49,311 bases of DNA from Patescibacteria group bacterium (lineage in GTDB: Bacteria; Patescibacteriota; Minisyncoccia; UBA6257; GWB1-50-10): positions 32,168-81,478 of the forward strand of contig JBBTSG010000006.1 of assembly GCA_038064775.1 (NCBI GenBank), given 5' to 3'. The notes below the pieces were generated by a model, which saw nothing but the letters and a program-made list of their open reading frames with translations, did not search any database and was not told where the DNA came from. This document shows, in pieces, positions 5,199-44,783 of the stretch. The number at the start of each line of letters is the position of its first letter. The first letter of the stretch is position 1. The translations under genes were made by a program, and so were the position numbers.

Positions 5199-7003
5199 GG
5201 ATTTGTCTTAGCTTCTTTCTCCAAGTCGGTCACCATTTGTTGTTTTAGTTCCGCGGGATCCAAAAACGGATACATGTCTTCGTATGGTTTGGGCACAAAT
5301 CTGCCATCGGGTAATTTATCCGACATAGTTCTTGGCGCCAATATTTGCCACTCTGGCGTCATTACGTCACAAATTACTGGCCCATCATAACTTAAAACTT
5401 CAGCTATTTTTTCATCAATCCCGTCCACTGAATCGATTCTAACGCCTTTAATTCCGTAAGCCTCCGCTATCTTAAGAGAATCCGGACACCAAAGACCAGT
5501 AGCCGGACTCTCGCCTATTAAATGTTTGTTCATAAAATTAGCTTGACTTAGTCGCATCAATAAATATCCATTGTTATTAAAAATAAAAATCTTAAGTGGT
5601 AAATTATTGTGTTTAACGGTGGCGAGCTCCTGCAAATTCATTTGCAAACTACCATCTCCAGTGATAACAATAGTATTTTTCCTATCATTAGCCACACAAG
5701 CCCCAATTCCGGCTGCCCAGTAACCCATAGTGGAAAATCCACCAGTCGTTAAAAATTTTTGACCTTTCTTTATTTTCCATGTTTGACACGCGACATGAAA
5801 ACAGGAACCGGTATCAACTAAAATCCAATCGTCTTTTGTCGCGGCCGCGGAAAGTTTGTCAGTAAAATAATATGAGTTTACCGGTTTTTCATTCTTGTAA
5901 GAAGGTTGAACAACTGGATACTTAATTCTCCATGCCTTACATACTCTTACCCACCCTCCCCAATCCGGCAATTTTTTATCGGTAATTTCTTCAAGTAACG
6001 TTTGAAGGAATTTTTTTGCCGTGCTCTTTATTTTAAGATCAATTTCAACCCCTGGCTTGTCCAGTTCTTTTTGGTCAACGTCCACAACAATTTTTTTTGC
6101 GTTTCTTCCGAAATCTTTGGGGTTATGTCCAACTAATGACGTGGCTAATCTGCAACCAACAACTACTATTAAATCTGAATTTTGAATCGCAAAATTTGCA
6201 GCTCTTTCCCCATACGTACCCGGCCTACCAACATACAATTTATGCTCGCTATCAATTAAATCTATTGCTAAACGCGCGGTTAAAATTGGAATTTTTAGCA
6301 AATTAATAAGATTCTCGAATTCTCCCTCCGCGCTACCCAATTTTATCCCTTGCCCAACCAAGAGTATTGGTCTTTTTGCACTTAGTAACATTTGGACTAG
6401 TTCTGCGATTTGACCTTTGTCAGACGCGAACTCTTCTTCCGTTTCTTGTTCATTAAAAATCTTTGCCGGTTTTTCCGGAACTTCAGCTCTTTGTATATCC
6501 AACGGCACATCAAGCCAAACCGGACCAGGCCTGCCGTTCATGGCAAGATAATAAGCCTTCTCCAAATAATATAATAAGTTAGCGGGGTTATCGACGGTAA
6601 CAAAAAATTTAACTACGTCTTTTACTAACGGTTTTATGTTTATACCCTGGACTCCAACTTGCCGAATTTTATTTTTTTCCTGATAATCGACAAACGCTAA
6701 ATTCGTCTGTCCAGAAATAATAATCATTGGCGAAGAATCTACCCAGCCGCCAACCACGCCGTTAATAACGTTCACCGCGCCGGGCCCCGCGGTTACCATA
6801 GCAATCGCTGGCTTTTTTTTTAGCCGTCCGTAGGCTTCAGCTGCCATTCCGGCTGCCTGTTCGTGATGAGAACAAATAACCTTAATTTTCTTACTCCTAT
6901 AAATCGCGTCATTTAGAAACATGGATTGCCCACCAGCAACCATAAACACCGCCTCAACTTCTTTTTCTTCAAAAAATTTTAAAATATAATCAGCAACAAT
7001 CAT
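5195..7003 (-). CDS. ThDP-dependent acetolactate-synthase-like enzyme, YerE/ErwE type (branched-sugar acyl transferase)
   Basis: HHEQAAGMAAE, VTAGPG, RPGPVWLDVPLDIQ, TGDGSLQMNLQEL..NNNGY; glycan-locus context. Confidence 0.85.
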   Translation of the reverse strand: MIVADYILKFFEEKEVEAVFMVAGGQSMFLNDAIYRSKKIKVICSHHEQAAGMAAEAYGRLKKKPAIAMVTAGPGAVNVINGVVGGWVDSSPMIIISGQTNLAFVDYQEKNKIRQVGVQGINIKPLVKDVVKFFVTVDNPANLLYYLEKAYYLAMNGRPGPVWLDVPLDIQRAEVPEKPAKIFNEQETEEEFASDKGQIAELVQMLLSAKRPILLVGQGIKLGSAEGEFENLINLLKIPILTARLAIDLIDSEHKLYVGRPGTYGERAANFAIQNSDLIVVVGCRLATSLVGHNPKDFGRNAKKIVVDVDQKELDKPGVEIDLKIKSTAKKFLQTLLEEITDKKLPDWGGWVRVCKAWRIKYPVVQPSYKNEKPVNSYYFTDKLSAAATKDDWILVDTGSCFHVACQTWKIKKGQKFLTTGGFSTMGYWAAGIGACVANDRKNTIVITGDGSLQMNLQELATVKHNNLPLKIFIFNNNGYLLMRLSQANFMNKHLIGESPATGLWCPDSLKIAEAYGIKGVRIDSVDGIDEKIAEVLSYDGPVICDVMTPEWQILAPRTMSDKLPDGRFVPKPYEDMYPFLDPAELKQQMVTDLEKEAKTNP

Positions 7004-7008
7004 CGTTT

Positions 7009-8013
7009 TTATTGGTGTTTTTTTGACAAATTCACGGCTACATCTACAATAACATCTTCTTGACCAGCAACAACTTTTCGTTTTCCTAACTCCATAAAAA
7101 TATCTCTAGCATCAACTCCAAACTCTTCGGCCGCTTTCTTTACATGCGGAGTAAAACCAGAAAACACCCCCGCTAAACCGCTTACAATACTGATCGGGTC
7201 AATCCCTTGGAGGGTTTTCATTATCGGCTTTATTATCTCCTCGCCAGCATCCAAAAGCTTATATAGCTCTACGCCCGTATCTATCCCAGCTTTCTGCATC
7301 AAAGCCATCAAAGCTTCGAGTTGGCAATTACCCGCACCCGCCCCAAATCCCCTCACCGTGCCATCAATAATACTTGCCCCGGACTCTAAAGCGATAAAAG
7401 AATTGGCCACGGCCATACTTAAATTATTATGGGCGTGAAAGCCAACTAGAATTTTTAAATTATCCGCCAAGTGTTTAACCGTTTCCCTAACCATAAGAGT
7501 GGTGGATGAACCAGCCGAATCCATAAGCAACACGCCCTTTACGCCATAGCTTTGCATTTTTTTTGCCTCTTCTAATAATCTTTCTTTCGAAGCCATATGA
7601 TACATCATTAGAACGCCAAAAGCCTCTTTTCTTTTACTAACCACATACTCAATATGCTGCTGGGTAATATCAGCTTCCGTACAATGCGTTCCTACACAAA
7701 CCAAATCTACTCCAGCATCAAGCGCTGGAGCCAAATCATCTTTAATAGTGCCAAATCCAGGAATCAAAAAGGTTCCTAGTTTGGTTTTTTTTAACGCTTC
7801 GCGCGCCGTAGAAATTATTTCCAAATCAGAATAAGCCGAAAGTCCAACCTGAAGAGTTGAAGCACCCAAGCCATTACCGTGTCCAACAATAACAGCGTAG
7901 AGACCAGACCCGTCAACTTTTTCACAATAGCTTTTGATTGTGAGGGGGTTAATTTGGTGCCTTACTGCGTGCGACCCATCCCTTAAAGTGGAATCAAAAA
8001 AAATAGGTTTCAT
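7009..8013 (-). CDS. dmpG: 4-hydroxy-2-oxovalerate aldolase
   Basis: DSTLRDGSHAVRHQ, VGHGNGLGAS, THCTEAD, GFHAHNNL, LGKRKVVAGQED. Confidence 0.93.
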   Translation of the reverse strand: MKPIFFDSTLRDGSHAVRHQINPLTIKSYCEKVDGSGLYAVIVGHGNGLGASTLQVGLSAYSDLEIISTAREALKKTKLGTFLIPGFGTIKDDLAPALDAGVDLVCVGTHCTEADITQQHIEYVVSKRKEAFGVLMMYHMASKERLLEEAKKMQSYGVKGVLLMDSAGSSTTLMVRETVKHLADNLKILVGFHAHNNLSMAVANSFIALESGASIIDGTVRGFGAGAGNCQLEALMALMQKAGIDTGVELYKLLDAGEEIIKPIMKTLQGIDPISIVSGLAGVFSGFTPHVKKAAEEFGVDARDIFMELGKRKVVAGQEDVIVDVAVNLSKKHQ

Positions 8014-10986: not shown

Positions 10987-12045
10987 TTAATGCATTTCCG
11001 TTCTGCCTTTTTCGGTCTCTATCGGAACGTGACGCATCCACAGTTTTTCTTTCCACCAATTTTCATTATTGATATACCAATCGATAACTGACCGGAGACC
11101 GCTTTCAAATGAGATTTTTGGCTCCCAACCAAGAACTTTTTTAATTTTATCTACTCCTGCAGTATGCCGAAAAACTTGACCTGGGCGATCCCCAATATTC
11201 ATAGATGAAAAACTGTATTGGACCTTACTGCTTTTATTCTTCATATATTCCATGATAAGATCAGCTATTTTTGAAACAGAGTAATCTTCCCCAGTACCAA
11301 CATTAAAAACCTCACCTTCAACTTTTTCCGCGGGAGCGTGCAAAATTAAATCTATAGCATTAGATAAGTCGTCTACGTAAGTAAAATCCCTTTTGCTATT
11401 ACCTGTGCCGTGTATAGTAAGCGGCTCTCTCAAAATACAGCTGGTGATAAAGCGGGGAATTAACTTCTCAAGATGTTGGTTCGGACCAAACATGTTAAAA
11501 GGGCGGACAATCACTGCCGGAATTTTATAAGTTGATACATAAGAATAAACTAGTCGATCAGCTCCAGCCTTGGCGGCGGCATAAGGACTTGCGGGATTAA
11601 GAGGGTGATCTTCATGCATTTTATCAGTAACCGCCGTACCATAAACTTCACTGGTCGAGATGTGAATAAATCTCTTGATTCTGTCTCTGTGTCGCAAAAC
11701 CGCGTTTGCCACCCGTTGAGTACCAATAACATCCGTCTCAAAAAATCTTTCGTCATCATAAATCGAACGAGCCACATGAGTTTCGGCGGCAAAATGAATA
11801 ACGACATTCGCTCGCGAGACAAGCTCTTCAACGAGTTTGGCATTTTTTACATCTCCATAGACGAAACGAAAATTTGAGGATTCGTGAATCCTTTTTGAAA
11901 TATTATGAATATCTCCCGCATACGTGAGCGCATCGAGAACAATGAAATTATATTTAGGGTATTTATCGAACAGATAAGCGAGTACATTGCTACCAATAAA
12001 TCCGGCAGCCCCAGTTATTAAAATTGTATTTCTGTCAGATATCAT
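10987..12045 (-). CDS. RmlB-like NDP-sugar 4,6-dehydratase (or decarboxylase) with a TSE active-site variant
   Basis: ITGAAGFIGS, DALTYAG, HFAAETHV, HISTSEVYG, PYAAAK, RDFTYVDD, DRPG. Confidence 0.85.
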   Translation of the reverse strand: MISDRNTILITGAAGFIGSNVLAYLFDKYPKYNFIVLDALTYAGDIHNISKRIHESSNFRFVYGDVKNAKLVEELVSRANVVIHFAAETHVARSIYDDERFFETDVIGTQRVANAVLRHRDRIKRFIHISTSEVYGTAVTDKMHEDHPLNPASPYAAAKAGADRLVYSYVSTYKIPAVIVRPFNMFGPNQHLEKLIPRFITSCILREPLTIHGTGNSKRDFTYVDDLSNAIDLILHAPAEKVEGEVFNVGTGEDYSVSKIADLIMEYMKNKSSKVQYSFSSMNIGDRPGQVFRHTAGVDKIKKVLGWEPKISFESGLRSVIDWYINNENWWKEKLWMRHVPIETEKGRTEMH

Positions 12046-36059: not shown

Positions 36060-37346
36060 TTATTCCGAAGTCGGCCGCTCGGCAAGCGTAATACTTAAAG
36101 TAATAACGTCTTTCCCCCGTTCCACTTTTAGATTCAACGTGTCGCCGATTGAATATTCTTGGACTATATTGCTTAAGGTTTTTTCTTTGTTAATTTTTTC
36201 GCCGTTCACTTCCAAAATAATATCTTCCGCCTTCAAGCCGGCTTTTTCCGCTGGCGAACCGGGCACAATCGCGGGACCGTCAGGCGTTCCCCGCACAAGA
36301 GCGCCATTTTGAACCGGTAAATTTTGTTTTTTTGCTAAACCCTCATCAATCATCAGATAGCGCACGCCGAGATAAGGTGTTTTTATGCTGCCGGTTTTTT
36401 TCACCGATTCAATCGCCCGCTTCACTTGATTTATAGGAATTGTAAAGCCAATGTTCTGGGCGCCCGAGACAACCGCTGTGTTAATGCCGATCACTTCACC
36501 TTTCAAGTTCAAAAGCGGACCGCCGGAATTGCCAGGGTTAATTGCCGCGTCCGTTTGAAAAACTCCTTGAATTGTCTCCGAGCCAAATTCGCCACCGCCA
36601 GCCGTCACTGTTCGTGAAAGGCCGGAAATCACGCCAACTGAAACAGTGTTACGAAATTCGCCTAAAGCGTTACCAATCGCGATTGCTGTTTGACCAAGTT
36701 TCACACTATCAGAGTTGCCAATTATTGCGGCTTTTAGGCCAGTTGCTGAAATTTTTATAAGCGCAATATCGTTTGTTGTGTCACGCGCTAAAACTTTAGC
36801 GTCATATTTTTTGCCGTCGTTTGTGAGCACCGTATAATCCGCGTTTTTGTCGTAAACCACATGTTTGTTAGTGGCAATTAAGCCTTCTTCGCTCACAATA
36901 AAACCACTACCGCCGCCCACTTCTTTTTTTTGCGTTCCTTTTTCACATGGCTGCGAAAATTGGAAACCCTGGCCAGGCAGACCGCCGTTACCGCCAAAAA
37001 ATTGCTTAAACTCCGGCGGTAAATTAGAAAAAGGATCGTAACCGCAATTCTCAATTACCGGTAAATCTTTTGAAATGACGATTGAAACAACTGATGGCGA
37101 AGCGGTTTCAACCGAGCGAATCACCGCTTCTTCATAATCAATAGTCGGTTTGTAGAGTGGAATTTCTTTTATGGGCGATCCGCCAGCTGGCGGATTAGGC
37201 GCGGTCGTTATAGCGCCGCCTTTTAGATAATTTAATAAATCGTCTAAAATATTCGCCTGCGCTAATCTTGAAGAAACAAGCGAACCAAAAAATCCGCCAA
37301 CAATCGCGGCAATAATTATAAAAACTAAAAGTTTTTTATTATTCAT
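36060..37346 (-). CDS. degP: DegP/HtrA serine protease with one PDZ domain
   Basis: GGGSGFIV, TNKHVV, DIALIKI, FQTDAAINPGNSGGPL, PDZ (GSPAEKAGLKAEDII). Confidence 0.93.
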   Translation of the reverse strand: MNNKKLLVFIIIAAIVGGFFGSLVSSRLAQANILDDLLNYLKGGAITTAPNPPAGGSPIKEIPLYKPTIDYEEAVIRSVETASPSVVSIVISKDLPVIENCGYDPFSNLPPEFKQFFGGNGGLPGQGFQFSQPCEKGTQKKEVGGGSGFIVSEEGLIATNKHVVYDKNADYTVLTNDGKKYDAKVLARDTTNDIALIKISATGLKAAIIGNSDSVKLGQTAIAIGNALGEFRNTVSVGVISGLSRTVTAGGGEFGSETIQGVFQTDAAINPGNSGGPLLNLKGEVIGINTAVVSGAQNIGFTIPINQVKRAIESVKKTGSIKTPYLGVRYLMIDEGLAKKQNLPVQNGALVRGTPDGPAIVPGSPAEKAGLKAEDIILEVNGEKINKEKTLSNIVQEYSIGDTLNLKVERGKDVITLSITLAERPTSE

Positions 37347-37351
37347 ATTTT

Positions 37352-37403
37352 GTAATTATTCGTAGCAATTCGCAGATTCGGATGTTATCCGTAGATTCGT
37401 ATC
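37352..37403 (-). repeat. Degenerate 8-nt tandem-like repeats (consensus TACGAATM) in the SIMPL-degP spacer
   Basis: TACGAATC, TACGGATA, TCCGAATC, TGCGAATT and TACGAATA within about 50 bp. Confidence 0.55.
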
Positions 37404-37406
37404 GGC

Positions 37407-38180
37407 TTATTTTATTTCGTACCTTAAATTAACCGTTACTTGGATTTCTTGTGAACCCGGTTGAATTACAGGCGCTGGCGCCGCCCCGCCTAAACCAAAA
37501 GTTTCTTTAGCTGAGTAATAAGGAACTGGCGAATAACCTTCATCAATTGAAAGCAATCGGCCGATTGAAAAACCGCCGGAAGTCGCAATTACTTCCGCTT
37601 TTTCTTTTGCCTTTGAAATCGCTTCTGCCCGCGCCTGGTTTTGCAACGCATTTGAATCATCAATCGTAAAATTCAAGCTTGATACGGTATTCGCGCCGTT
37701 TAGAACAACGCCCGAAAGCGCCTCGCCAATTTTTGAAAAATCCCGCACTTTAACGCTCACCGTTTGATTAATTGAGTAACCGACAATTTCCGCGGGCGGA
37801 CAAGACACTGAACCACTTGTTTCCGGATGATTACAGCTGTAAGTTAGGTAACGCGGCGTAAGCGAATAATTTTCGGTTTTAATGTCTTTATCCGCCACTC
37901 CTTCGCTTTTCACAAACGCGATTGCCTTATTAACCTTAGTGGTGTTTTCATTCGTTAACGCCGCAATGTCTTTACCGCCTTCGGTTAAAACACCGAAAGA
38001 AAATTCAGCAACGTCCGGCACGGCGGTTACTTTCCCTTCGCCCGAAACTGAAAAACTCCGGAAAGACGACGGTTCGATTGATTTTGAATAAGTGTCGGCG
38101 AAACTCCACGCCGCGAAAGCCGAAACTAAACTTACAACTATAAGCGCCCCACCTAAATAATTTTTTATTTTATCATTCAT
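37407..38180 (-). CDS. SIMPL domain protein (DUF541/YggE-like)
   Basis: VSGEGKVTAVPDVA, VKVRD, GAN.VSSL.F, A..KAKEKA, IQPG.QEI.VTV...Y. Confidence 0.92.
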   Translation of the reverse strand: MNDKIKNYLGGALIVVSLVSAFAAWSFADTYSKSIEPSSFRSFSVSGEGKVTAVPDVAEFSFGVLTEGGKDIAALTNENTTKVNKAIAFVKSEGVADKDIKTENYSLTPRYLTYSCNHPETSGSVSCPPAEIVGYSINQTVSVKVRDFSKIGEALSGVVLNGANTVSSLNFTIDDSNALQNQARAEAISKAKEKAEVIATSGGFSIGRLLSIDEGYSPVPYYSAKETFGLGGAAPAPVIQPGSQEIQVTVNLRYEIK

Positions 38181-38298
38181 AATTTAATTATATTATATCT
38201 GCGCTGAAAATAAAAAATCCCCAAAGGCCAAAAGGTCTAAGGGAATTCAAGGTTGAAAGAACAGAATTAAAGAACAAAGGACGAAAGGGTCAAGCCAG

Positions 38299-38319
38299 CC
38301 CGCCTGCGGAACGGGCAGG
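38299..38319. repeat. GC-rich REP-like palindromic element abutting the stop codon
   Basis: CCTGCCCGTTCCGCAGGCGGG (minus strand) can form two alternative stems, CCTGC/GCAGG and GCCCG/CGGGC. Confidence 0.55.
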
Positions 38320-38949
38320 TTACGGAACAACCACCTGATGGCGATCGTCGGCAGACCAAACGTTCGAGTTCTCAAACCGGTGCACGCTCACCTCGAGCGC
38401 GTCGTCCGAGTGCACGTCCACGTAGGCAACGAAGAACTGGTTATTACTTTCAAAGAGGAAAAATGTTCCATAACCTTCTCCTCTTAGCCAATTCTTGTGG
38501 CGTTTCACAAACTGCTTGATCTGAGCTTGGGTGAGGCAGAATTTGGTCAAGTCAGAGTCGAGAGATCCGAACATTTTGGAGAAGGTCGCGTCTTCATTCA
38601 TTTCATAAACCTGAAGGGCGGTTTCTTTGGTTGGCGCTCCTTTTTGATCGGTGCCGTAGTTATTGAAATCGGAGTCAATCCAGCTGAAAAGGTCTTTCGC
38701 TTTCGCGAGAGTTTTTGTGCCGTCTTCGGAGTCAAGAATAATAGATTCTCCTTCGGAAATTAGTTTGAGAATCGGGTGTAACAGTTCGGAAAAAATTTCG
38801 CCGAACTTCACCTGTAATTCTTTGCCTTTTTTCAAAACGGTTTGCGCTCCAGTTCTTGAAGGATTAAGTTTAATTAGCTTATCCTCGACTACACGGAGAA
38901 TTTGTTTCTTTTGGTTTGATGTCATCATAAGTTTTTCTTTCGTACTCAT
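38320..38949 (-). CDS. Hypothetical protein (apparently CPR-type family)
   Basis: Own promoter and SD AAAGGAG; C-terminal FFVAYV...LEVSV.RFE...VW...R..VVVP; no function recognised. Confidence 0.65.
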   Translation of the reverse strand: MSTKEKLMMTSNQKKQILRVVEDKLIKLNPSRTGAQTVLKKGKELQVKFGEIFSELLHPILKLISEGESIILDSEDGTKTLAKAKDLFSWIDSDFNNYGTDQKGAPTKETALQVYEMNEDATFSKMFGSLDSDLTKFCLTQAQIKQFVKRHKNWLRGEGYGTFFLFESNNQFFVAYVDVHSDDALEVSVHRFENSNVWSADDRHQVVVP

Positions 38950-39043
38950 GTGATCATCTCCTTTCTTTATTTTATGCCAATCGTTCGTTTCCTACTTTTT
39001 TTCGGAAAATCCCGAAATGGCGGTTGGTAAATAAACTAGAAGT

Positions 39044-39072
39044 AATTTATCACGCTATTTGATATTTGTCAA
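39044..39072 (-). promoter_or_regulatory. sigma70 promoter with extended -10
   Basis: TTGACA-N17-TAAATT preceded by TGa. Confidence 0.75.
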
Positions 39073-39075
39073 TCA

Positions 39076-39137
39076 CGTTAGAAATCCGCTTTGCTGAAGG
39101 CACGGCGGCAGCCGCTAGAAGCGGCTTATTTCTAACG
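39076..39137. repeat. 62-bp element with 10-bp terminal inverted repeats overlapping the iscS-like stop codon
   Basis: CGTTAGAAAT...ATTTCTAACG with internal hairpin AGCCGC/GCGGCT. Confidence 0.65.
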
Positions 39138-40437
39138 GAATCAATATTTCCAAAACTTTTTTTAAATCAGCTATTTTTGTCTCTCTACCGAAACTAAACC
39201 GCAAACTGCTCATAATCCTCTCTTGCTCTAATCCGATTGCGGTTAAAACATGCGAAAGTTTAGTCGCCCGCGCGGAACAAGCCGAACCGGCGGAAACCGC
39301 CACGCCCACTTTATCAAGTTTTATAAGCATTTCGTCCGCGAGCGTGCCCGGCAAATAAACATTTAAAATATGGGGCGCGGACTTATCATCAATCGGTCCG
39401 TTTACGGCGAGTGCCGGAAAAATTTTCTCGAGTCGCGCGAGAAAATATTTTTTTAATTTTTCAGTTTTGAGACAATTTTGCTTGCGGCGCGCGGAGACAA
39501 GTTCAACCGCTTTGCCGAAACCGACAATTAGCGGTGTATTTTCCGTTCCCGACCGCAAACCAAATTCCTGCCCGCCGCCGGTAATAATCGGCTTTATCTC
39601 TTTTTTAATCTTTTCCCGAAGGTAGAGCGCGCCAATGCCTTTCGGGCCATAAATTTTGTGGGCGGAGAGCGTCATTAAATCAACGCCTAATTTTTTAACG
39701 TCACAATCGAAAAACTGAAACGCTTGAACGGCGTCAATATGGAATAAGGGGTAAGAAGAAAGAAGATTTTTCTCTAAGAAAAGTGTCTCGGAGCCCGAGC
39801 GGGCACGGTCTCCGACGAAGTCGGAGGAGCGAGGGCGAGAGTCAAGCGGGCGAGCGAGCGGCTGGGCGAGCGAGACCCCGTCTTTTTGTGAGATAAATTT
39901 TCTTTCTTTGAATTCGGAAATTATCTTTGAAATTTCCGCAATCGGCTGGACCGTGCCAATTTCATTATTCACATACATTACCGATACCAAAATTGTTTTA
40001 TCGTTTAAAGCTGATTTCAATTTATTTAAATCGACTAAACCTTCACGGCTAACCGGTAAATAGATAACATCAAATCCGTCGCGCTCCAAGTCGCGAGCCG
40101 TTTCCAAAACCGATTCATGCTCAATCGCCAAAATTATAATCCGTGAATCTTTCGGTTTATCTTTAAGCGCGCCGCGCAACGCCAAGTTATTCGCTTCCGT
40201 TGCCGAACCGGTAAAAATTATTTCCCGAAATCCGGCGGCCGCCGGACGCCCGATCGCTTTCGCGATTACCTCCCGGCTTTCATCAATCGCTTTAATCGCT
40301 TCTTGGCCAAAACGGTGAAGTGAACCAGCGTTGCCAAAATTTTCTAGAAAATAAGGCATCATCGCTTTCAAAACCGCGGGGTGAACCGGCGTTGAAGCGG
40401 CATAATCAAGATAAATATTGTTTGTTTTAACTCTCAT
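39115..40437 (-). CDS. iscS: Cysteine desulfurase (IscS/NifS group I) with in-frame insertions
   Basis: YLDYAASTP, FTGSATEANN, NNEIGTVQP, HIDAVQA, SAHKIYGPKG (PLP Lys), RSGTEN, SAGSACS (catalytic Cys). Confidence 0.92.
   Translation of the reverse strand: MRVKTNNIYLDYAASTPVHPAVLKAMMPYFLENFGNAGSLHRFGQEAIKAIDESREVIAKAIGRPAAAGFREIIFTGSATEANNLALRGALKDKPKDSRIIILAIEHESVLETARDLERDGFDVIYLPVSREGLVDLNKLKSALNDKTILVSVMYVNNEIGTVQPIAEISKIISEFKERKFISQKDGVSLAQPLARPLDSRPRSSDFVGDRARSGSETLFLEKNLLSSYPLFHIDAVQAFQFFDCDVKKLGVDLMTLSAHKIYGPKGIGALYLREKIKKEIKPIITGGGQEFGLRSGTENTPLIVGFGKAVELVSARRKQNCLKTEKLKKYFLARLEKIFPALAVNGPIDDKSAPHILNVYLPGTLADEMLIKLDKVGVAVSAGSACSARATKLSHVLTAIGLEQERIMSSLRFSFGRETKIADLKKVLEILIPLEISRF
39785..39876. 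repeat. GC-rich structured in-frame insertion inside the iscS-like gene
   Basis: About 74% GC, bounded by GTCTCG/CGAGAC, internal hairpins CTCCGAC-GAA-GTCGGAG and GCCC-GAGC-GGGC, repeated GCGAG. Confidence 0.75.
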
Positions 40438-40445
40438 TTATGAGG

Positions 40446-40496
40446 ATTATAGCTATATATTCTCTATTTGACAAAATTATTATAGTATGCTATACT
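40446..40496. promoter_or_regulatory. Divergent sigma70 promoters sharing one TTGACAA -35 heptamer
   Basis: Plus strand: TTGACA(40468-40473)-N17-TATACT. Minus strand: TTGTCA(40469-40474)-N17-TATAAT, 8 nt before the iscS ATG. Confidence 0.82.
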
Positions 40497-40535
40497 TTAA
40501 ACAGTAAATTAATACTCACTAATTTCGAGGTAAAT

Positions 40536-41267
40536 ATGTTTGATTTGATTGATTTAAAACGCGGTCATGGAAAACTTTTTGCAAATAAAGACAAAAGGGT
40601 TTCGATGACCATTCATGTGGCGATATTCAATAAAAGTCGGGATAAAATTCTTCTTGTTCACGATCTCGGCGGTAGCGAAAACGGATTAAAAATCGGCGGA
40701 GTAAAGCCAGAGCGTTGGGTGCTTATCACTGGCAAAGTTCATGCCGGCGAAACGCCTTACGAAGCGGCGAATCGGGAAACACGAGAAGAAGGAAATCTTT
40801 TAATAGAAGATGTGCCTTTCTTTATTTCTCGCCTGCCAGCGCTTACCGAAAAAAAAGGAAAAGAAGAAAGCATTCATATGGAGATTTTTTTTATCGGGGA
40901 ATTGAAAAATTCTAATGAAAAACTTCCTGAAAAAACCTTTCCTGTCCGCGACCCTCTTCGCCACGTGGTTGAGGGGTATTGGCACTCTATTGATGACTTA
41001 CCTACTGACGAAGAAGCTCGTCGGTCATGCTATTTATTTGACCAAGCTAAACTAGAAAGAAAACCTATCGAGCAGCTGGAAGAATTACCTTATTTTTCCA
41101 TAGACAAAGAAACGGTTTTCCCAATCTCACCTCCTCACCTCCGATTTATTCGAAATAAAGGAATTTGTGACTCGCCAGAAGAACTTGATTCTAAAATACA
41201 AAATCTTCTAGCAATAGCCAAAACTTCCTTTTTCCGGTTGCCGTTAATTCCCAAAACCTCCTTGTAA
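40536..41267 (+). CDS. Nudix hydrolase; start reassigned to MFDLIDLK
   Basis: GKVHAGETPYEAANRETREEG Nudix box; SD CGAGGT; the promoter lies inside the longer ORF. Confidence 0.8.
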   Translation: MFDLIDLKRGHGKLFANKDKRVSMTIHVAIFNKSRDKILLVHDLGGSENGLKIGGVKPERWVLITGKVHAGETPYEAANRETREEGNLLIEDVPFFISRLPALTEKKGKEESIHMEIFFIGELKNSNEKLPEKTFPVRDPLRHVVEGYWHSIDDLPTDEEARRSCYLFDQAKLERKPIEQLEELPYFSIDKETVFPISPPHLRFIRNKGICDSPEELDSKIQNLLAIAKTSFFRLPLIPKTSL

Positions 41268-41282
41268 TTACAAGGGGGTTTT
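41253..41282. terminator. Bidirectional terminator between convergent genes
   Basis: AAAACCTCCTTGT-AATT-ACAAGGGGGTTTT. Confidence 0.7.
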
Positions 41283-41749
41283 TATTTTTCTTCTTTTTTT
41301 TCAAGCAGCTCGTAAACGTTAATCTTTCTCAAAATTATTAAAATAATTAATAAGCTCACCGTCGCGATCGCGGCGAAGCTAGTAAGTCCAATGCCGCACA
41401 AAACGCCGATTGCCGCCACAAACCAAACGGAAGCGGCCGTAGTAAGGCCACGAACGTGAATTCCTTGCTGGATAATAATTCCCGCGCCCAAAAAACCGAT
41501 GCCAACCACGATGTTCGCGATCACATTCAAAGAACCGCTATTATTTGAAATAACCTGATCCAAATTAGAAGTAGCGACTAGATACGGCAAAGTTAAACCG
41601 ATTAGAGAAAAAATCGCCGCGCCGGAGGCAACCATTATATCAGTGCGGACACCAGCTTCTTTACCAACCATTTCCCGTTCAAAGCCGATTAAAGCGCCAA
41701 GTAGGGCTGCGATTCCTAATCTCAATATCATTTCTCCAGTGGTAAGCAT
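41282..41749 (-). CDS. MgtC/SapB family membrane protein
   Basis: LGALIGFERE, AGVRT, GIGFLGAGII, GLTTAASVW. Confidence 0.93.
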   Translation of the reverse strand: MLTTGEMILRLGIAALLGALIGFEREMVGKEAGVRTDIMVASGAAIFSLIGLTLPYLVATSNLDQVISNNSGSLNVIANIVVGIGFLGAGIIIQQGIHVRGLTTAASVWFVAAIGVLCGIGLTSFAAIATVSLLIILIILRKINVYELLEKKEEK

Positions 41750-41767
41750 TAGATTAATTATACAAAA

Positions 41768-42349
41768 TTATTGATAGTTTGGCCGATCTTCTTCTATTTT
41801 TAACTGGAAATTTGCGTAGCGGGCTAAAGCAAAAAGAAAGCTGGAAAGCCGGTTAAAAAACTGAAGCAATTCCGGCGTGAGACGCTTAATTTCAGAATTG
41901 TAACCGACCGCCTCACGTTCAGCGCGCCGAATAATTGTCCGGCCAAAATCAAACATTGCCGAAATTTCACTGCCGCCCGGAATAATAAAATGTTTTAATT
42001 CACTGACTTGCTGATCAATCAAACTAATCTTCCCCTCAATTTTTTCAGTTGTGGCAGATGTAATTTTCGGACTTTTTGGATAAGCGAAGGCGATGGCGGC
42101 CACTTCCGCCTGGGCGATAAAAAGAAGTTGCTGGATTTCTTTGATAACGTTTTCAAGGTTCAGCGGATCGCCTTTCTCAAAACTAAAATTTTTCTCTTTG
42201 TTGATTTTCGCCCGACAAAGCCCAAGCCAAGAATTTAATTCATCAAGCGTTCCTAAAATAGCCATCGCCGGATCAGTTTTTGAAAACTTTTTCTCGCCAA
42301 TCTGGCTTTCGCCCTGATCGCCCTTACCAGTAAAAAATTTTGTCTTCAT
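41768..42349 (-). CDS. PduO-type ATP:cob(I)alamin adenosyltransferase
   Basis: TGKGDQGES, GTLDELNSWLG, FIIPGGS, RTIIRRAER, NRLSSFLF. Confidence 0.9.
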   Translation of the reverse strand: MKTKFFTGKGDQGESQIGEKKFSKTDPAMAILGTLDELNSWLGLCRAKINKEKNFSFEKGDPLNLENVIKEIQQLLFIAQAEVAAIAFAYPKSPKITSATTEKIEGKISLIDQQVSELKHFIIPGGSEISAMFDFGRTIIRRAEREAVGYNSEIKRLTPELLQFFNRLSSFLFALARYANFQLKIEEDRPNYQ

Positions 42350-42380
42350 TACATTTTTAATTTTAACAGAGTTATAAAGA

Positions 42381-42407
42381 AAAAACCCCGCAGTTGCGGG
42401 GATTTTT
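42381..42407 (-). terminator. Intrinsic terminator
   Basis: CCCCGCA/TGCGGGG stem with T-tract. Confidence 0.78.
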
Positions 42408-42427
42408 CTAACGAACTAAAAAACTTT

Positions 42428-42649
42428 CTACAGACCATTTATGTCTTGATCGATATTGTCAAAACCACTATCTACACTACCAACATCAATACCGCTTAAA
42501 TCATTGCTAATATTTACCGTGCTGTCCGGCGCGGTTTGTAAATTAGCCCTCGGATCAATTGAAGGAACGGAATTTGAGCTTTTCATAAACCACCAAACGA
42601 GCAAAACAACGACTAAAATAATTAACCAAATAATTGTGTTCTTTTTCAT
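42428..42649 (-). CDS. Small single-pass membrane protein
   Basis: MKKN + hydrophobic helix + acidic S/D-rich tail; co-transcribed with the upstream secreted protein. Confidence 0.65.
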   Translation of the reverse strand: MKKNTIIWLIILVVVLLVWWFMKSSNSVPSIDPRANLQTAPDSTVNISNDLSGIDVGSVDSGFDNIDQDINGL

Positions 42650-42650
42650 A

Positions 42651-43406
42651 TTATTGATTGCTGGTTGAAGTTGCGGTTGAAGTTGCGGTTGAAGTCGCCT
42701 CTTTGTCTTCGTCTACGCGGGGAATTTTAGCGAGGGTCGTCGCTGCGTTATGAACAGCGTCGCGAGCGGCAACGACTAATTTTTGTACCGCGTTTAAATC
42801 ACTTTTAAGTGTTTCGCGAGTGCTCTTAACAAGACTTTGGAGATCGCTCATCGTTGAGCTTGAAATAACGGTTGGCAAATTAATCGGATAAGTTTTTGCG
42901 AGCTGGGCTTTCACCGCTGTTTGCGCCGTTGTAATTGCGCTCTGCGCGGCGGTAATTGCTGTTCGCGCCGCGGTTACGTCATTACCACGAGCTTGAACTT
43001 TGTCCGTGCGACTCACGATTCTTGTGAGCACGCTATTTAGCTTATCTAAAACATTGCTAAAATGATTAGCTGAACGTTGATTTAAATCATTCAGATTGTT
43101 TTGAAGTCGATTTAAAACTTCTTTCTTGCGAGTGTCTTTGATTTGCTCAACTTTTGATTTAAAAGTTTCTCGCTCTTTTTCAATCTTTTGTCCGACTGTT
43201 GCTTTAAGCGTTTTCACGTCCGATTGGAACTTTTCCTTAAGCGATTCCATTACTTCACGCGATTGCGCCTTAACATTCTGCACGCTCGTCTTATAATCAC
43301 CGCGCATTTTATTCAACTCATCACGATAGGGTTTTGTTGATGTCTGAGCACTCACGAAAAACGCGAGCCCAAAAAACAACGCAACCGCTAAAACTGATTT
43401 CTTCAT
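42651..43406 (-). CDS. Secreted helical/coiled-coil hypothetical protein with an (ATST)3 tail
   Basis: Signal peptide MKKSVLAVALFFGLAFFVSA; heptad-rich body; 12-nt tandem repeat x3 at 42663-42698. Confidence 0.72.
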   Translation of the reverse strand: MKKSVLAVALFFGLAFFVSAQTSTKPYRDELNKMRGDYKTSVQNVKAQSREVMESLKEKFQSDVKTLKATVGQKIEKERETFKSKVEQIKDTRKKEVLNRLQNNLNDLNQRSANHFSNVLDKLNSVLTRIVSRTDKVQARGNDVTAARTAITAAQSAITTAQTAVKAQLAKTYPINLPTVISSSTMSDLQSLVKSTRETLKSDLNAVQKLVVAARDAVHNAATTLAKIPRVDEDKEATSTATSTATSTSNQ

Positions 43407-43481
43407 ATAATTTTTATTTTATTATGGATTGACCTTTATATTTACTTACTTAAGTATAACGCATTCAAACACGCAATGTTT

Positions 43482-44783
43482 CTAGGAATAGATTTTCCCC
43501 CGTAAATAATTTTTTAATTCGGCGATTTTCACTCTTTCTTGTTTTGCCGTGTCGCGATCGCGGACGGTTACATCTCCATTATCCAAACTATCAAAATCAA
43601 CGGTGATACAATAGGGCGTGCCGATTTCGTCTTGGGAATAATAGCGTTTGCCGATATTCCCCCGCTCGTCCCAAGCAATGTTTCCGCCGGCTGGCGGATC
43701 TTTTTTCAAATCAGTGTAAATTTTTCTGGCAAGCTCAACTAATTTCGGTTTATTCGCCAAAAGCGGAAACACCGCCGCTTTGAACGGCGCGAGACGCGGG
43801 TGAAGCTTTAAAAATACCCGATCTTTTTCTTCCGTGTAAGCATCTACCAAGAAAAATAAAGCGGCCCGATCCACGCCACCGGAGGTCTCAATTATAAACG
43901 GTAAAAATCTTTCCTTGGTTTCTTCATCAAAATAAGTAAGGTCCTTTTTTGAAAATTCCTGATGCCGGCGAAGATCAAAGTCACCCCGGTGATGGATACC
44001 TTCCATTTCCCGCCATTCATTATCAACACGATATTCAATATCAAAAGCCGCTTGGGCGTAATGCGCCAACTTTTCATGTTCTTTGAAACGCAAATTATTT
44101 TTGCTCATCCCCAAGTTTTTGTACCAATCCATTCTTTTTTCTTTCCAGTTTTCTAAAACCTTCATTGATTCTTTTTTGTCAGGCCGCACATAATATTGAA
44201 GTTCCATTTGTTCAAACTCGCGGGAACGGAATGTAAAATCACCTGGCGTAATTTCATTCCTGAAAGCTTTGCCGATTTGCGCGATGCCAAACGGCAATTT
44301 AACGCGGGTGGAGTCCAAAACGTTTTTAAAATTAACGTGCACGCCTTGAGTAATCTCGCCCCGCAGATATGTTTTTGTTTTTTCGCCTTCAACCACGCCA
44401 AGATAAGTTTCAACCATTAGATTAAAAGTTTTCGGTTCGGTAAGCGCACCGCCGCAATCAGGGCATTTATTTTTATCTACCTGGTCGGCTCGAAAACGGT
44501 GATGGCATTTTTTGCATTCCACAAGCGGATCGGAAAAAGAATCCAAATGACCCGAAGCTTCCCAAACTTTCGGATTCATGATTATTGCGGCATCCATTCC
44601 CACAATTTCATCGTTTTCCCGAACAACCGATTTCCAAAACTCATTTTTAATATTCCGCTTTAGTTCAACGCCAAGCGGGCCGTAATCCCAAGTGCCGGCC
44701 AATCCGCCGTAAATTTCCGATCCGGGATAAATAAACCCCCGTCTTTTTGCTAACGCCGAAATTTTTTCTAAAGCATTTGCCAT
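43482..44783 (-). CDS. glyQS: Glycine-tRNA ligase (homodimeric alpha2 type)
   Basis: SEIYGGLAGTWDYGPLG, YLRGEITQG, GKAFRNEI, RSREFEQMEL, IETSGGVDR, GKRYYSQDEIGTP. Confidence 0.96.
   Translation of the reverse strand: MANALEKISALAKRRGFIYPGSEIYGGLAGTWDYGPLGVELKRNIKNEFWKSVVRENDEIVGMDAAIIMNPKVWEASGHLDSFSDPLVECKKCHHRFRADQVDKNKCPDCGGALTEPKTFNLMVETYLGVVEGEKTKTYLRGEITQGVHVNFKNVLDSTRVKLPFGIAQIGKAFRNEITPGDFTFRSREFEQMELQYYVRPDKKESMKVLENWKEKRMDWYKNLGMSKNNLRFKEHEKLAHYAQAAFDIEYRVDNEWREMEGIHHRGDFDLRRHQEFSKKDLTYFDEETKERFLPFIIETSGGVDRAALFFLVDAYTEEKDRVFLKLHPRLAPFKAAVFPLLANKPKLVELARKIYTDLKKDPPAGGNIAWDERGNIGKRYYSQDEIGTPYCITVDFDSLDNGDVTVRDRDTAKQERVKIAELKNYLRGKIYS

Follow-up and report, generated by a model that had tools for sequence, protein, structure and literature searches.

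The 49,311-nucleotide stretch of Patescibacteria DNA analyzed here (hereafter the window), with a G+C content of 40%, carries three GC-rich palindromes inside protein-coding genes, and these are very probably copies of a dispersed hairpin repeat that became inserted there. The most probable origin of the three is that they are solo copies of one 16-bp hairpin, with the consensus (A)TCCGYC-RGCY-GRCGGA(T) (6-bp stem and 4-nt loop), which would be the repeat of a selfish element associated with tRNA genes and encoding a GIY-YIG nuclease. The best matches of the window proteins were in Patescibacteria near Jorgensenbacteria and Wolfebacteria.

The original prediction had reported one palindromic element inserted in frame in two housekeeping genes, and its description of sequences, codons and reading frame was accurate. 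The first copy is the perfect 18-bp palindrome ATCCGCCAGCTGGCGGAT (37178–37195), which corresponds to the canonical 16-mer TCCGCCAGCTGGCGGA plus an A/T pair. It lies in a minus-strand gene (36060–37346) encoding an HtrA/DegP-type serine protease of 428 aa with Trypsin_2 and PDZ (PDZ_2) domains, whose orthologs are named Protease Do, and its coding strand reads AAT CCG CCA GCT GGC GGA TCG (N-PPAGG-S). The second copy, TCCGCCGGCTGGCGGA (43683–43698; coding strand TCCGCCAGCCGGCGGA), is a hairpin with a 6-bp stem and a 4-nt loop and not a perfect palindrome, being identical to the core of the DegP copy at 15 of 16 positions. It is found, in the same reading frame as the DegP copy, in the anticodon-binding domain of a class II glycine–tRNA ligase of the alpha2 type (GlyRS, glyQS; 433 aa; 43482–44783, minus strand; tRNA-synt_2b and HGTP_anticodon domains), where GAT CCG CCA GCC GGC GGA AAC (D-PPAGG-N) stands immediately 5′ of IAWDERGNIGKRY. 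The third copy is the perfect 16-bp palindrome TCCGGCGGCCGCCGGA (40231–40246), translated as R-PAAAG-F in a NifS/IscS-like cysteine desulfurase (440 aa; 39115–40437, minus strand; Aminotran_5). Compared with the canonical 16-mer, it has two pairs of substitutions placed symmetrically and is still a perfect palindrome. All three copies fold into a 6–7-bp stem with a 4-nt loop, and the hairpin energies range from −6.4 to −7.4 kcal/mol for DNA and from −11 to −12 kcal/mol for RNA (−7.3 and −12.0 kcal/mol, respectively, for the DegP copy).

These occurrences are far beyond chance. With up to two mismatches allowed, the window contains the degenerate motif three times, when shuffled sequence led us to expect 0.01 occurrences, and PPAGG was present twice in about 16,000 ORF (open reading frame) residues against 0.009 expected. 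CCG is the commonest proline codon of the window (0.39); therefore, unusual codons alone are no evidence and only the joint identity of the five codons is informative.

According to the alignments, the GlyRS hairpin cleanly inserts four residues into a loop. The nearest orthologs (82–85% identity) in the set of 120 best homologs read KK-D/E-WM-VAWD where the window protein reads KK-D-PPAGG-N-IAWD, and alignment with PDB 8u2q left a clean 4-residue gap in the loop that joins helix 1 to strand 2 in the anticodon-binding domain. Four other homologs of this set, from unrelated lineages, carry PPAGG or PPGGG at the same loop, and the DNA of all four encodes it through the same palindrome: two have a perfect TCCGCCAGCTGGCGGA, one has ATCCGCC-AGGC-GGCGGAT and one, P0080, has the compensated stem CCTCC-GGGG-GGAGG. 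The codons xxT CCG CCA GCT GGC GGA thus recur across lineages, and orthologs with the peptide and lacking the DNA palindrome, which the original prediction had regarded as evidence against an inserted element, were not encountered. The five inserted sequences were scattered on a neighbor-joining tree, four of them having insert-free neighbors at 85–92% identity, while the nearest one of P0097 was at 75%. With respect to the uninserted neighbors, the 16-mer stands in place of about 4 nt and lengthens the gene by 12 nt. The position of the insert differs by one codon between lineages, the synonymous sites flanking it differ among the inserted alleles, and the gene order downstream of glyQS differs in the contigs of the GlyRS neighbors. 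The same loop has been hit, or the hairpin has been kept there, in separate lineages. An uninserted neighbor (P0047, locus L131) of the inserted P0080 (L005) has K-GG-YM, encoded by GGC GGC, where others have K-K-D; this GGC GGC may be the right arm remaining after loss of the element.

Comparison with orthologs shows that the cysteine desulfurase copy is an insertion as well. About 20 of 120 Patescibacteria orthologs show A/R/T-PPAGG-F, or a decayed form of it (SPAGG, PPADG, PPDGG, PLAAG, PAVAR), exactly at the position of R-PAAAG-F in the window protein, and the orthologs without insert read A-D-F and are four residues shorter. In the two orthologs whose DNA was fetched (L267 and L268), both syntenic with the window, this site is GCT CCG CCA GCT GGC GGA TTC, that is, the canonical 16-mer. 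Because these orthologs have the canonical element at exactly that codon, the sequence at 40231–40246 is a genuine third copy. As in GlyRS, insert-bearing proteins were scattered: the nearest neighbor was insert-free in 16 of 25 cases, one such pair sharing 88% identity.

Other features of the cysteine desulfurase genes were observed. Further PPAGG peptides occur in P0265, in which NPPAGG (residue 233) replaces KK in ...FDCDV-KK-LGVDLM, and in P0360 (residue 235), within a variable GC-rich region. In the window this region (39778–39892, residues ~176–230) is a GC-rich in-frame insertion of about 55 residues, with up to 75% G+C and several internal hairpins, at a place where solved cysteine desulfurases have about five residues. 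It is common to P0242, P0243, and P0246, its length among Patescibacteria orthologs ranges from 21 to 74 residues, and the region resembles a second hot spot, one for GC-rich elements of other kinds. The possibility that this insertion of about 100 nt was a longer copy of the element was discarded, since it has no similarity to the 16-mer and no other copy in the window or the loci. In L267, TCCGCCAGTTGGCGGA (11669–11684) encodes PPVGG in a SIMPL/DUF541 gene of the same length as its window ortholog (37407–38180), which would be either a replacement without net gain or a chance occurrence.

The DegP copy lies inside a Ser/Thr/Pro-rich linker whose length is highly variable among 120 orthologs, the window protein being the only one with PPAGG. 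The nearest ortholog (70% identity), whose linker is shorter by one residue, has TPPAAS (ACG CCG CCG GCT GCA TCT), which may be either an old copy that has decayed or a half-palindrome that was completed in the window. Because the linker is hypervariable, insertion is not provable at this site, and the DegP sequence is regarded as a copy on the grounds of being the exact canonical 16-mer of a dispersed element. Consequently, of the two insertions originally predicted, the one in GlyRS holds and the one in DegP is not demonstrable by comparison, whereas the predicted location in a loop or linker was right for both (the GlyRS loop after helix 1 and the DegP Ser/Thr/Pro linker). Elsewhere in the window, CCCCGCAGTTGCGGGG (42386–42401) is placed in the gap between two minus-strand ORFs (42350–42650), preceded by an A-run and followed by a T-run; its sequence has the appearance of a common intrinsic terminator acting in both directions and bears no relation to the element.

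To determine the dispersal of the hairpin, exact matches to TCCGCCAGCTGGCGGA were searched taking one genome per species, and at least 120 stretches were obtained. Among the matches listed, to which the counts of this and the next paragraph refer, 41 belonged to Patescibacteria, 33 to Bacteroidota and 46 to other taxa, including Elusimicrobiota, Cloacimonadota, and a minority of high-GC organisms. About 98 sites were in loci below 50% G+C, where the chance estimated from base composition is ~3e-11 per position. In high-GC genomes the 16-mer is usually part of a natural RQLAE/D helix. In agreement with the original prediction, the motif is strongly over-represented in the genomes of low-GC Patescibacteria, and about half of the Patescibacteria copies are within ORFs. 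Specifically, 21 of 40 sites in low-GC Patescibacteria were inside ORFs of at least 150 aa, and 20 of these 21 were read as PPAGG, one as RQLA and none as SASWR. The hosts included CysRS, MetK, a Mur ligase, RecJ, glutamate dehydrogenase (GDH), TsaD, PNPase, a VirD4-like ATPase and a DHODH-like protein. MetK (L018) also bears an insertion, as its alignment with 7r3b gave a clean 4-residue gap (RK-N-PPAG-G-L versus RKD-G-T), and GDH (L041) gave a 5-residue gap with 1gtm.

In Bacteroidota, 31 of 38 copies were non-coding. Non-coding 16-mers were seen at the tips of unrelated longer hairpins or terminators (L045, L091, and L073) and, in the isolate genome of Mucilaginibacter flavidus (L062), in three copies of a REP-like repeat, in which the 16-mer replaces 8 nt (AGCAACCT). 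The flanks showed a weak A/T preference (weakly A at −1), GAT or AAT often preceding the 16-mer. Altogether, the hairpins replace 0–13 nt of the target: 3–13 nt in the tRNA fragments described below, 8 nt in the Mucilaginibacter repeat and about 4 nt in genes. The copies surviving in genes have a net gain of 12 nt, the Pro-Pro-Ala-Gly-Gly frame and a location in a surface loop or linker, and PPAGG is a flexible turn.

Two other origins of the 16-mer were also considered and rejected. A phage origin was discarded, given that IMG/VR contains only 55 stretches with the 16-mer, mostly high-GC natural RQLAE helices, with no phage enrichment. An assembly or adapter artefact was rejected in view of the frame bias, the presence of the hairpin in the M. 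flavidus isolate genome and the many independent studies from which the copies come.

Two other recurrent palindromes were noticed in these loci. One of them, CCTGCCTGCCGGCAGGCAGG, is found in low-GC loci of several phyla (L023:3286, L025:4042, L026:133, L040:406, L045:7053, L102:893, L103:6169, and L105:135), sometimes less than 30 nt from the 16-mer (L023 and L026); in L025 it is within a tRNA-like fragment just upstream of tRNA-Met, and the cysteine desulfurase ortholog P0259 contains LPAGR, the peptide that this palindrome would encode. The other, CGTCATTGCGAGGAACGAAGCAAYC, is a widespread REP-like hairpin of Bacteroidota, Patescibacteria and viral contigs that repeatedly has the 16-mer at its center (L062:3700–4400 and 6900–7300, L072:1254, L076:2302, L133:8791, and L147:8338), and in L062 it surrounds a GIY-YIG gene.

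We also considered that the hairpin might be a DNA uptake or recombination-drive sequence. Fragments carrying it would be preferentially taken up and recombined by naturally competent Patescibacteria, and it would pass between lineages, conserved genes included, in short gene-conversion patches. Patchy recombination of this kind would leave the hairpin scattered among lineages at a given loop of conserved genes, as was observed. The uptake sequences of Pasteurellaceae and Neisseria are likewise located within genes, in the frame that does least harm, and also form inverted pairs. However, known uptake sequences have a density of about one per kb, far from three copies in 49 kb, and are lineage-specific, whereas the same 16-mer is shared by Patescibacteria, Bacteroidota, Elusimicrobiota and Cloacimonadota. 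In addition, no shared conversion tract is visible among the inserted GlyRS alleles, given their different flanking synonymous sites, and the GIY-YIG/tRNA context presented next would be left unexplained. We judge this explanation highly improbable.

The first clue to the tRNA-associated element came from a Wolfebacteria locus (L069) in which two 16-mers bracket a small ORF beside tRNA-Asn. A local search detected small GIY-YIG ORFs in 3 of the 120 listed 16-mer loci, each of them at most 121 nt from a 16-mer. The three seed ORFs matched PF01541 with E-values of 3e-14 to 3e-21, and their match to TIGR01453 was far below the cut-off. These ORFs encode proteins of 77–101 residues (about 85) consisting of the catalytic domain only. 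As a test of the association, the three were aligned and 80 metagenomic loci (191 kb) were picked solely for encoding a GIY-YIG relative. In these loci there were 20 exact 16-mers and 37 sequences TCCGCC-N4-GGCGGA. The 42.9 kb lying within 160 nt of the GIY-YIG ORFs contained 53 hairpins of the form TCCG...CGGA and the rest of the sequence (148 kb) contained 13, so that the density near the ORFs is about 14 times that of the flanks of the same loci. Of the 39 loci with a protein sharing 45% identity or more with the query, 34 had the hairpin, compared with 11 of 41 for more distant relatives, and 47 of the 60 GIY-YIG loci scanned contained a tRNA gene, typically directly beside the ORF. The hairpin family is therefore physically tied to tRNA-associated GIY-YIG cassettes. 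The original prediction had proposed looking for a RAYT/HUH transposase flanked by the motif, and none was found: a jackhmmer search of about 1.7 Mb of loci (an estimate), using an IS200 TnpA sequence as query, gave a single IS200/RAYT-like hit, located 2.7 kb from the motif on a high-GC viral contig and thus not adjacent to it.

In the cassettes, the hairpin takes the place of a few bases in a duplicated, displaced and non-functional tRNA fragment, and the nuclease ORF lies between this fragment and the intact tRNA gene. This arrangement was seen with tRNA-Asn, -Lys, -Met, and -Val and with nucleases down to about 35% identity. In the type cassette of L191, a 5′ tRNA-Asn fragment (ATTCCGGAGTAGCTC, 1452–1466) is followed by the hairpin in place of D-loop bases (1467–1482), by GGTAGAGC (1483–1490), by an 84-residue GIY-YIG ORF starting at ~1499, whose TAG stop lies within the 5′ end of the tRNA, and by the intact tRNA-Asn (1740–1814). 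In tRNA-Lys cassettes the hairpin takes the place of bases of the D-loop in some cases and of the anticodon stem (its 5′ strand) in others, and the cassettes of tRNA-Met and tRNA-Val are reversed, with the intact tRNA, the ORF and then a 3′ tRNA fragment bearing the hairpin instead of the variable-loop region. The hairpin is 17–60 nt upstream of the nuclease start in the cassettes, and GIY-YIG ORFs with hairpins on both sides occur in L069, L234, L203, L215, and L222.

Several details of these loci deserve description. The GIY-YIG ORFs end in ...IPE* or ...IPQ* (L191:1735–1750; L069:2217–2240), and since the last codons and the TAG come from the 5′ end of the intact tRNA-Asn (ATTCCGNAGTAGCTC), the ORF and the tRNA overlap. 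At L064 (3990–4120), a 5′ tRNA-Lys fragment with the hairpin precedes about 95 nt that still encode a GIY-YIG start (MKYFTYVLKSDFKG...) and then an intact tRNA-Lys, which by its sequence looks like a decayed cassette. Nested or stuttered hairpins were found in L187 (~900–935; TCCGCCA TCCGCCA TCCGCCAACTGGCGGA GGCGGA) and in L214 (~1770–1830), where the 16-mer is split by another palindrome, which suggests the hairpin apex itself as a target.

Hairpin variants near nuclease genes include TCCGCCAGCCGGCGGA, the form present in glyQS of the window, as well as TCCGCCGGCTGGCGGA, TCCGTCAGCTGACGGA, TCCGCTGGCCAGCGGA, and TCCGGCAGATGCCGGA. With TCCG/CGGA fixed by the search, pair 5 was Watson-Crick in 62 of 63 hairpins (C-G, T-A, or G-C) and pair 6 in 61 of 63, positions 7–10 behaving as a loop; covariation thus keeps the stem. 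The outer TCCG...CGGA coincides with the first four acceptor-stem pairs of the adjacent tRNA-Asn (TCCGGAG...CTCCGGA; L188, L191, L208, and L212), and the outer pairs resemble the tRNA-Lys acceptor stem when the −1 and discriminator bases are included (T-CCGCCC...GGGCGG-A). Derivation of the hairpin from the adjacent acceptor stem was tried and dropped as an origin, as the bases at the variable positions of the stem do not match those of the local tRNA.

The maintenance of the stem raised the question of whether the hairpin is kept for a function of its own, as an mRNA structure (processing, stabilizer or pause), a protein-binding DNA site or a selected PPAGG peptide. Compensatory changes keep the stem in solo coding copies as well (the cysteine desulfurase of the window and the GlyRS P0080), the RNA hairpins are stable at the energies given above, and the cassette hairpin sits upstream of the nuclease start, where an operator or 5′ stabilizer would be placed. 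Symmetric change is, however, also the expected outcome of quasipalindrome template-switch correction, with which the substitutions observed agree, so that it need not mean selection. Moreover, the closest orthologs lack the hairpin, the host genes are functionally unrelated and the cysteine desulfurase peptides decay (SPAGG, PPADG, PLAAG, PAVAR), and selection on the peptide cannot explain the identical codons, the non-coding copies or the rare copies in other frames. A retained function is accordingly given very little credence here as the explanation of the family.

Returning to the hairpin as the repeat of a GIY-YIG element, the nuclease itself, or the repair of breaks that it provokes, would copy the hairpin to new sites in trans, with a division of labor like that of RAYTs and REPs in which the nuclease would mobilize solo hairpins. 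The variable loss of target bases without target duplication is more easily reconciled with a break that is resected and then patched by repair than with classical transposition. Symmetric mutations would then be maintained by hairpin-templated correction, and the protein inserts would be tolerated passengers and not adaptations. Within the cassette, the hairpin could be a putative binding site or operator of the nuclease, comparable to that of I-TevI, a disabler of the displaced tRNA fragment, or an mRNA-end structure. That the nuclease is the agent of spread is plausible, although we lean slightly against it; somewhat more tentative still is the complete proposal, namely, an undescribed mobile system in which a GIY-YIG nuclease reduced to its catalytic domain parasitizes tRNA genes and disseminates a 16-bp hairpin in trans, as a non-HUH counterpart of REP/RAYT.

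Several observations weigh against this proposal. Neither a GIY-YIG ORF nor a tRNA gene is present in the 49-kb window, and since a GIY-YIG ORF accompanies only 3 of the 120 listed 16-mer loci, most copies are far from a nuclease gene, which is expected for a system acting in trans and equally for an unrelated one. The nucleases have no DNA-binding domain beyond the catalytic fold, and we know of no transposition chemistry for GIY-YIG enzymes. No target-site duplication or consistent target motif was found at the 16-mer sites, where inserted and uninserted alleles are too diverged for exact junctions. An insertion is not demonstrable for the DegP copy, and the recurrence at one loop could also be read as an ancient insertion followed by many losses, with conservation at the nucleotide level. 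Finally, association is not causation, and dispensable tRNA fragments could be mere safe landing sites.

An alternative is that of an autonomous ultra-short selfish palindrome, which would spread by a host process (template switching, or break repair copying an ectopic hairpin) with a preference for single-stranded loops, the GIY-YIG/tRNA cassettes only accumulating hairpins on neutral ground. It agrees with the 16-mers at the tips of unrelated hairpins (L045, L091, and L073), within other repeats (the Mucilaginibacter REP-like one) and within itself (L187 and L214), with the lack of a GIY-YIG ORF in 117 of the 120 listed loci, and with the palindromes of chlorophyte organelles, which likewise insert into repeats (PMC2670323). 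Nevertheless, the cassettes are more regular than passive accumulation predicts: the hairpin occurs in 34 of the 39 close GIY-YIG loci, always in a displaced tRNA fragment and with Asn, Lys, Met, and Val tRNAs, and the pattern holds down to ~35% nuclease identity with the 14-fold density over the flanks. We therefore regard an autonomous palindrome as unlikely, although clearly less so than an uptake sequence or a retained function.

The affinity with Rickettsia palindromic elements (RPEs) or REP-like repeats suggested in the original prediction was valid for behavior, as this is a short palindromic repeat that colonizes genes in frame and creates new peptide segments, and not for membership, since it belongs to neither the RPE nor the REP/RAYT families. 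RPEs are selfish palindromic repeats located in frame in unrelated housekeeping genes (PMC10969869; PMC1779305). Like the hairpin element, they are found in small AT-rich genomes and add a peptide where the fold tolerates it, as occurs here in GlyRS, IscS, MetK, GDH, CysRS, TsaD, and PNPase. However, RPEs are of ~100–150 bp, encode 30–50 residues and are restricted to Rickettsia, whereas the hairpin element has 16–18 bp, adds four residues and extends over several phyla. It also differs from them in its repeated presence at one and the same loop of distinct lineages and in being accompanied by a nuclease gene, and there is no sequence similarity. With REP/RAYT it shares the many solo short hairpins and a single-domain nuclease-type gene bracketed by, or next to, the same hairpin. 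REPs, in contrast, are extragenic imperfect palindromes of 20–40 nt with a conserved GTAG head and an HUH/Y1 transposase, while the partner here is a GIY-YIG protein at tRNA genes, copies lie within genes and there is only a weak A at −1. The hairpin element is thus closest to RPEs in its behavior and also resembles REP/RAYT, but lacks the defining features of both. Nor does it have those of miniature inverted-repeat transposable elements, as it is one hairpin that replaces 0–13 nt, with no target-site duplication seen.

Regarding the nuclease, I-TevI binds to an operator that resembles its target and is located upstream of the I-TevI gene. In phages T4 and T6, SegB is a free-standing GIY-YIG gene among tRNA genes that acts on that region (PMC13096335). 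Seg and Tev enzymes are phage proteins with a DNA-binding domain, whereas those described here are catalytic-domain-only proteins of ~85 residues on bacterial chromosomes, known from sequence, and their cassettes add a duplicated tRNA fragment and a conserved GC hairpin dispersed genome-wide. Among organellar repeats, GC clusters form GC-rich islands within the AT-rich DNA of yeast mitochondria and can sit in frame in var1. The palindromes of Volvox organelles are hairpin repeats of 11–79 nt that proliferate in compact genomes and are often inserted in one another (PMC2670323). Both differ from the hairpin element in being organellar, mostly non-coding and devoid of an enzyme gene, and their sequences are unrelated, the Volvox mitochondrial repeats being AT-rich. 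HIP1 of cyanobacteria and uptake sequences resemble the element as short motifs over-represented genome-wide, also within genes in tolerated frames; they are nevertheless motifs of 8–12 nt, with thousands of copies per genome, lineage-specific and arising mainly by substitution and not by block insertion. Full-text searches, whose journal coverage is incomplete, yielded no published description of the hairpin sequence, the peptide or the cassette.

If the link with the GIY-YIG nuclease is causal, this would be a new class of mobile system. To our knowledge, the hairpin would be the shortest element colonizing protein-coding genes in frame, as well as the first such repeat tied to a GIY-YIG nuclease instead of an HUH transposase. 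The cassette formed by a tRNA fragment, the hairpin, an 85-residue nuclease gene and an intact tRNA is common and unannotated, and its recognition would avoid confusion in the annotation of tRNAs and genes in metagenome-assembled genomes. The 16-mer can also serve as a simple tag with which to follow the element from one phylum to another. Since its small size allows it to be written in frame within essential genes, the hairpin would repeatedly have given rise to one and the same four-residue loop in core proteins such as aminoacyl-tRNA synthetases, IscS, and MetK, in the candidate phyla radiation and beyond. In this radiation, whose proteins are known for unexplained insertions, it would provide a concrete and recurrent origin for loops inserted in core proteins, and since the same event is repeated at the GlyRS and IscS hot spots, these sites could be used for studying how proteins tolerate new loops.

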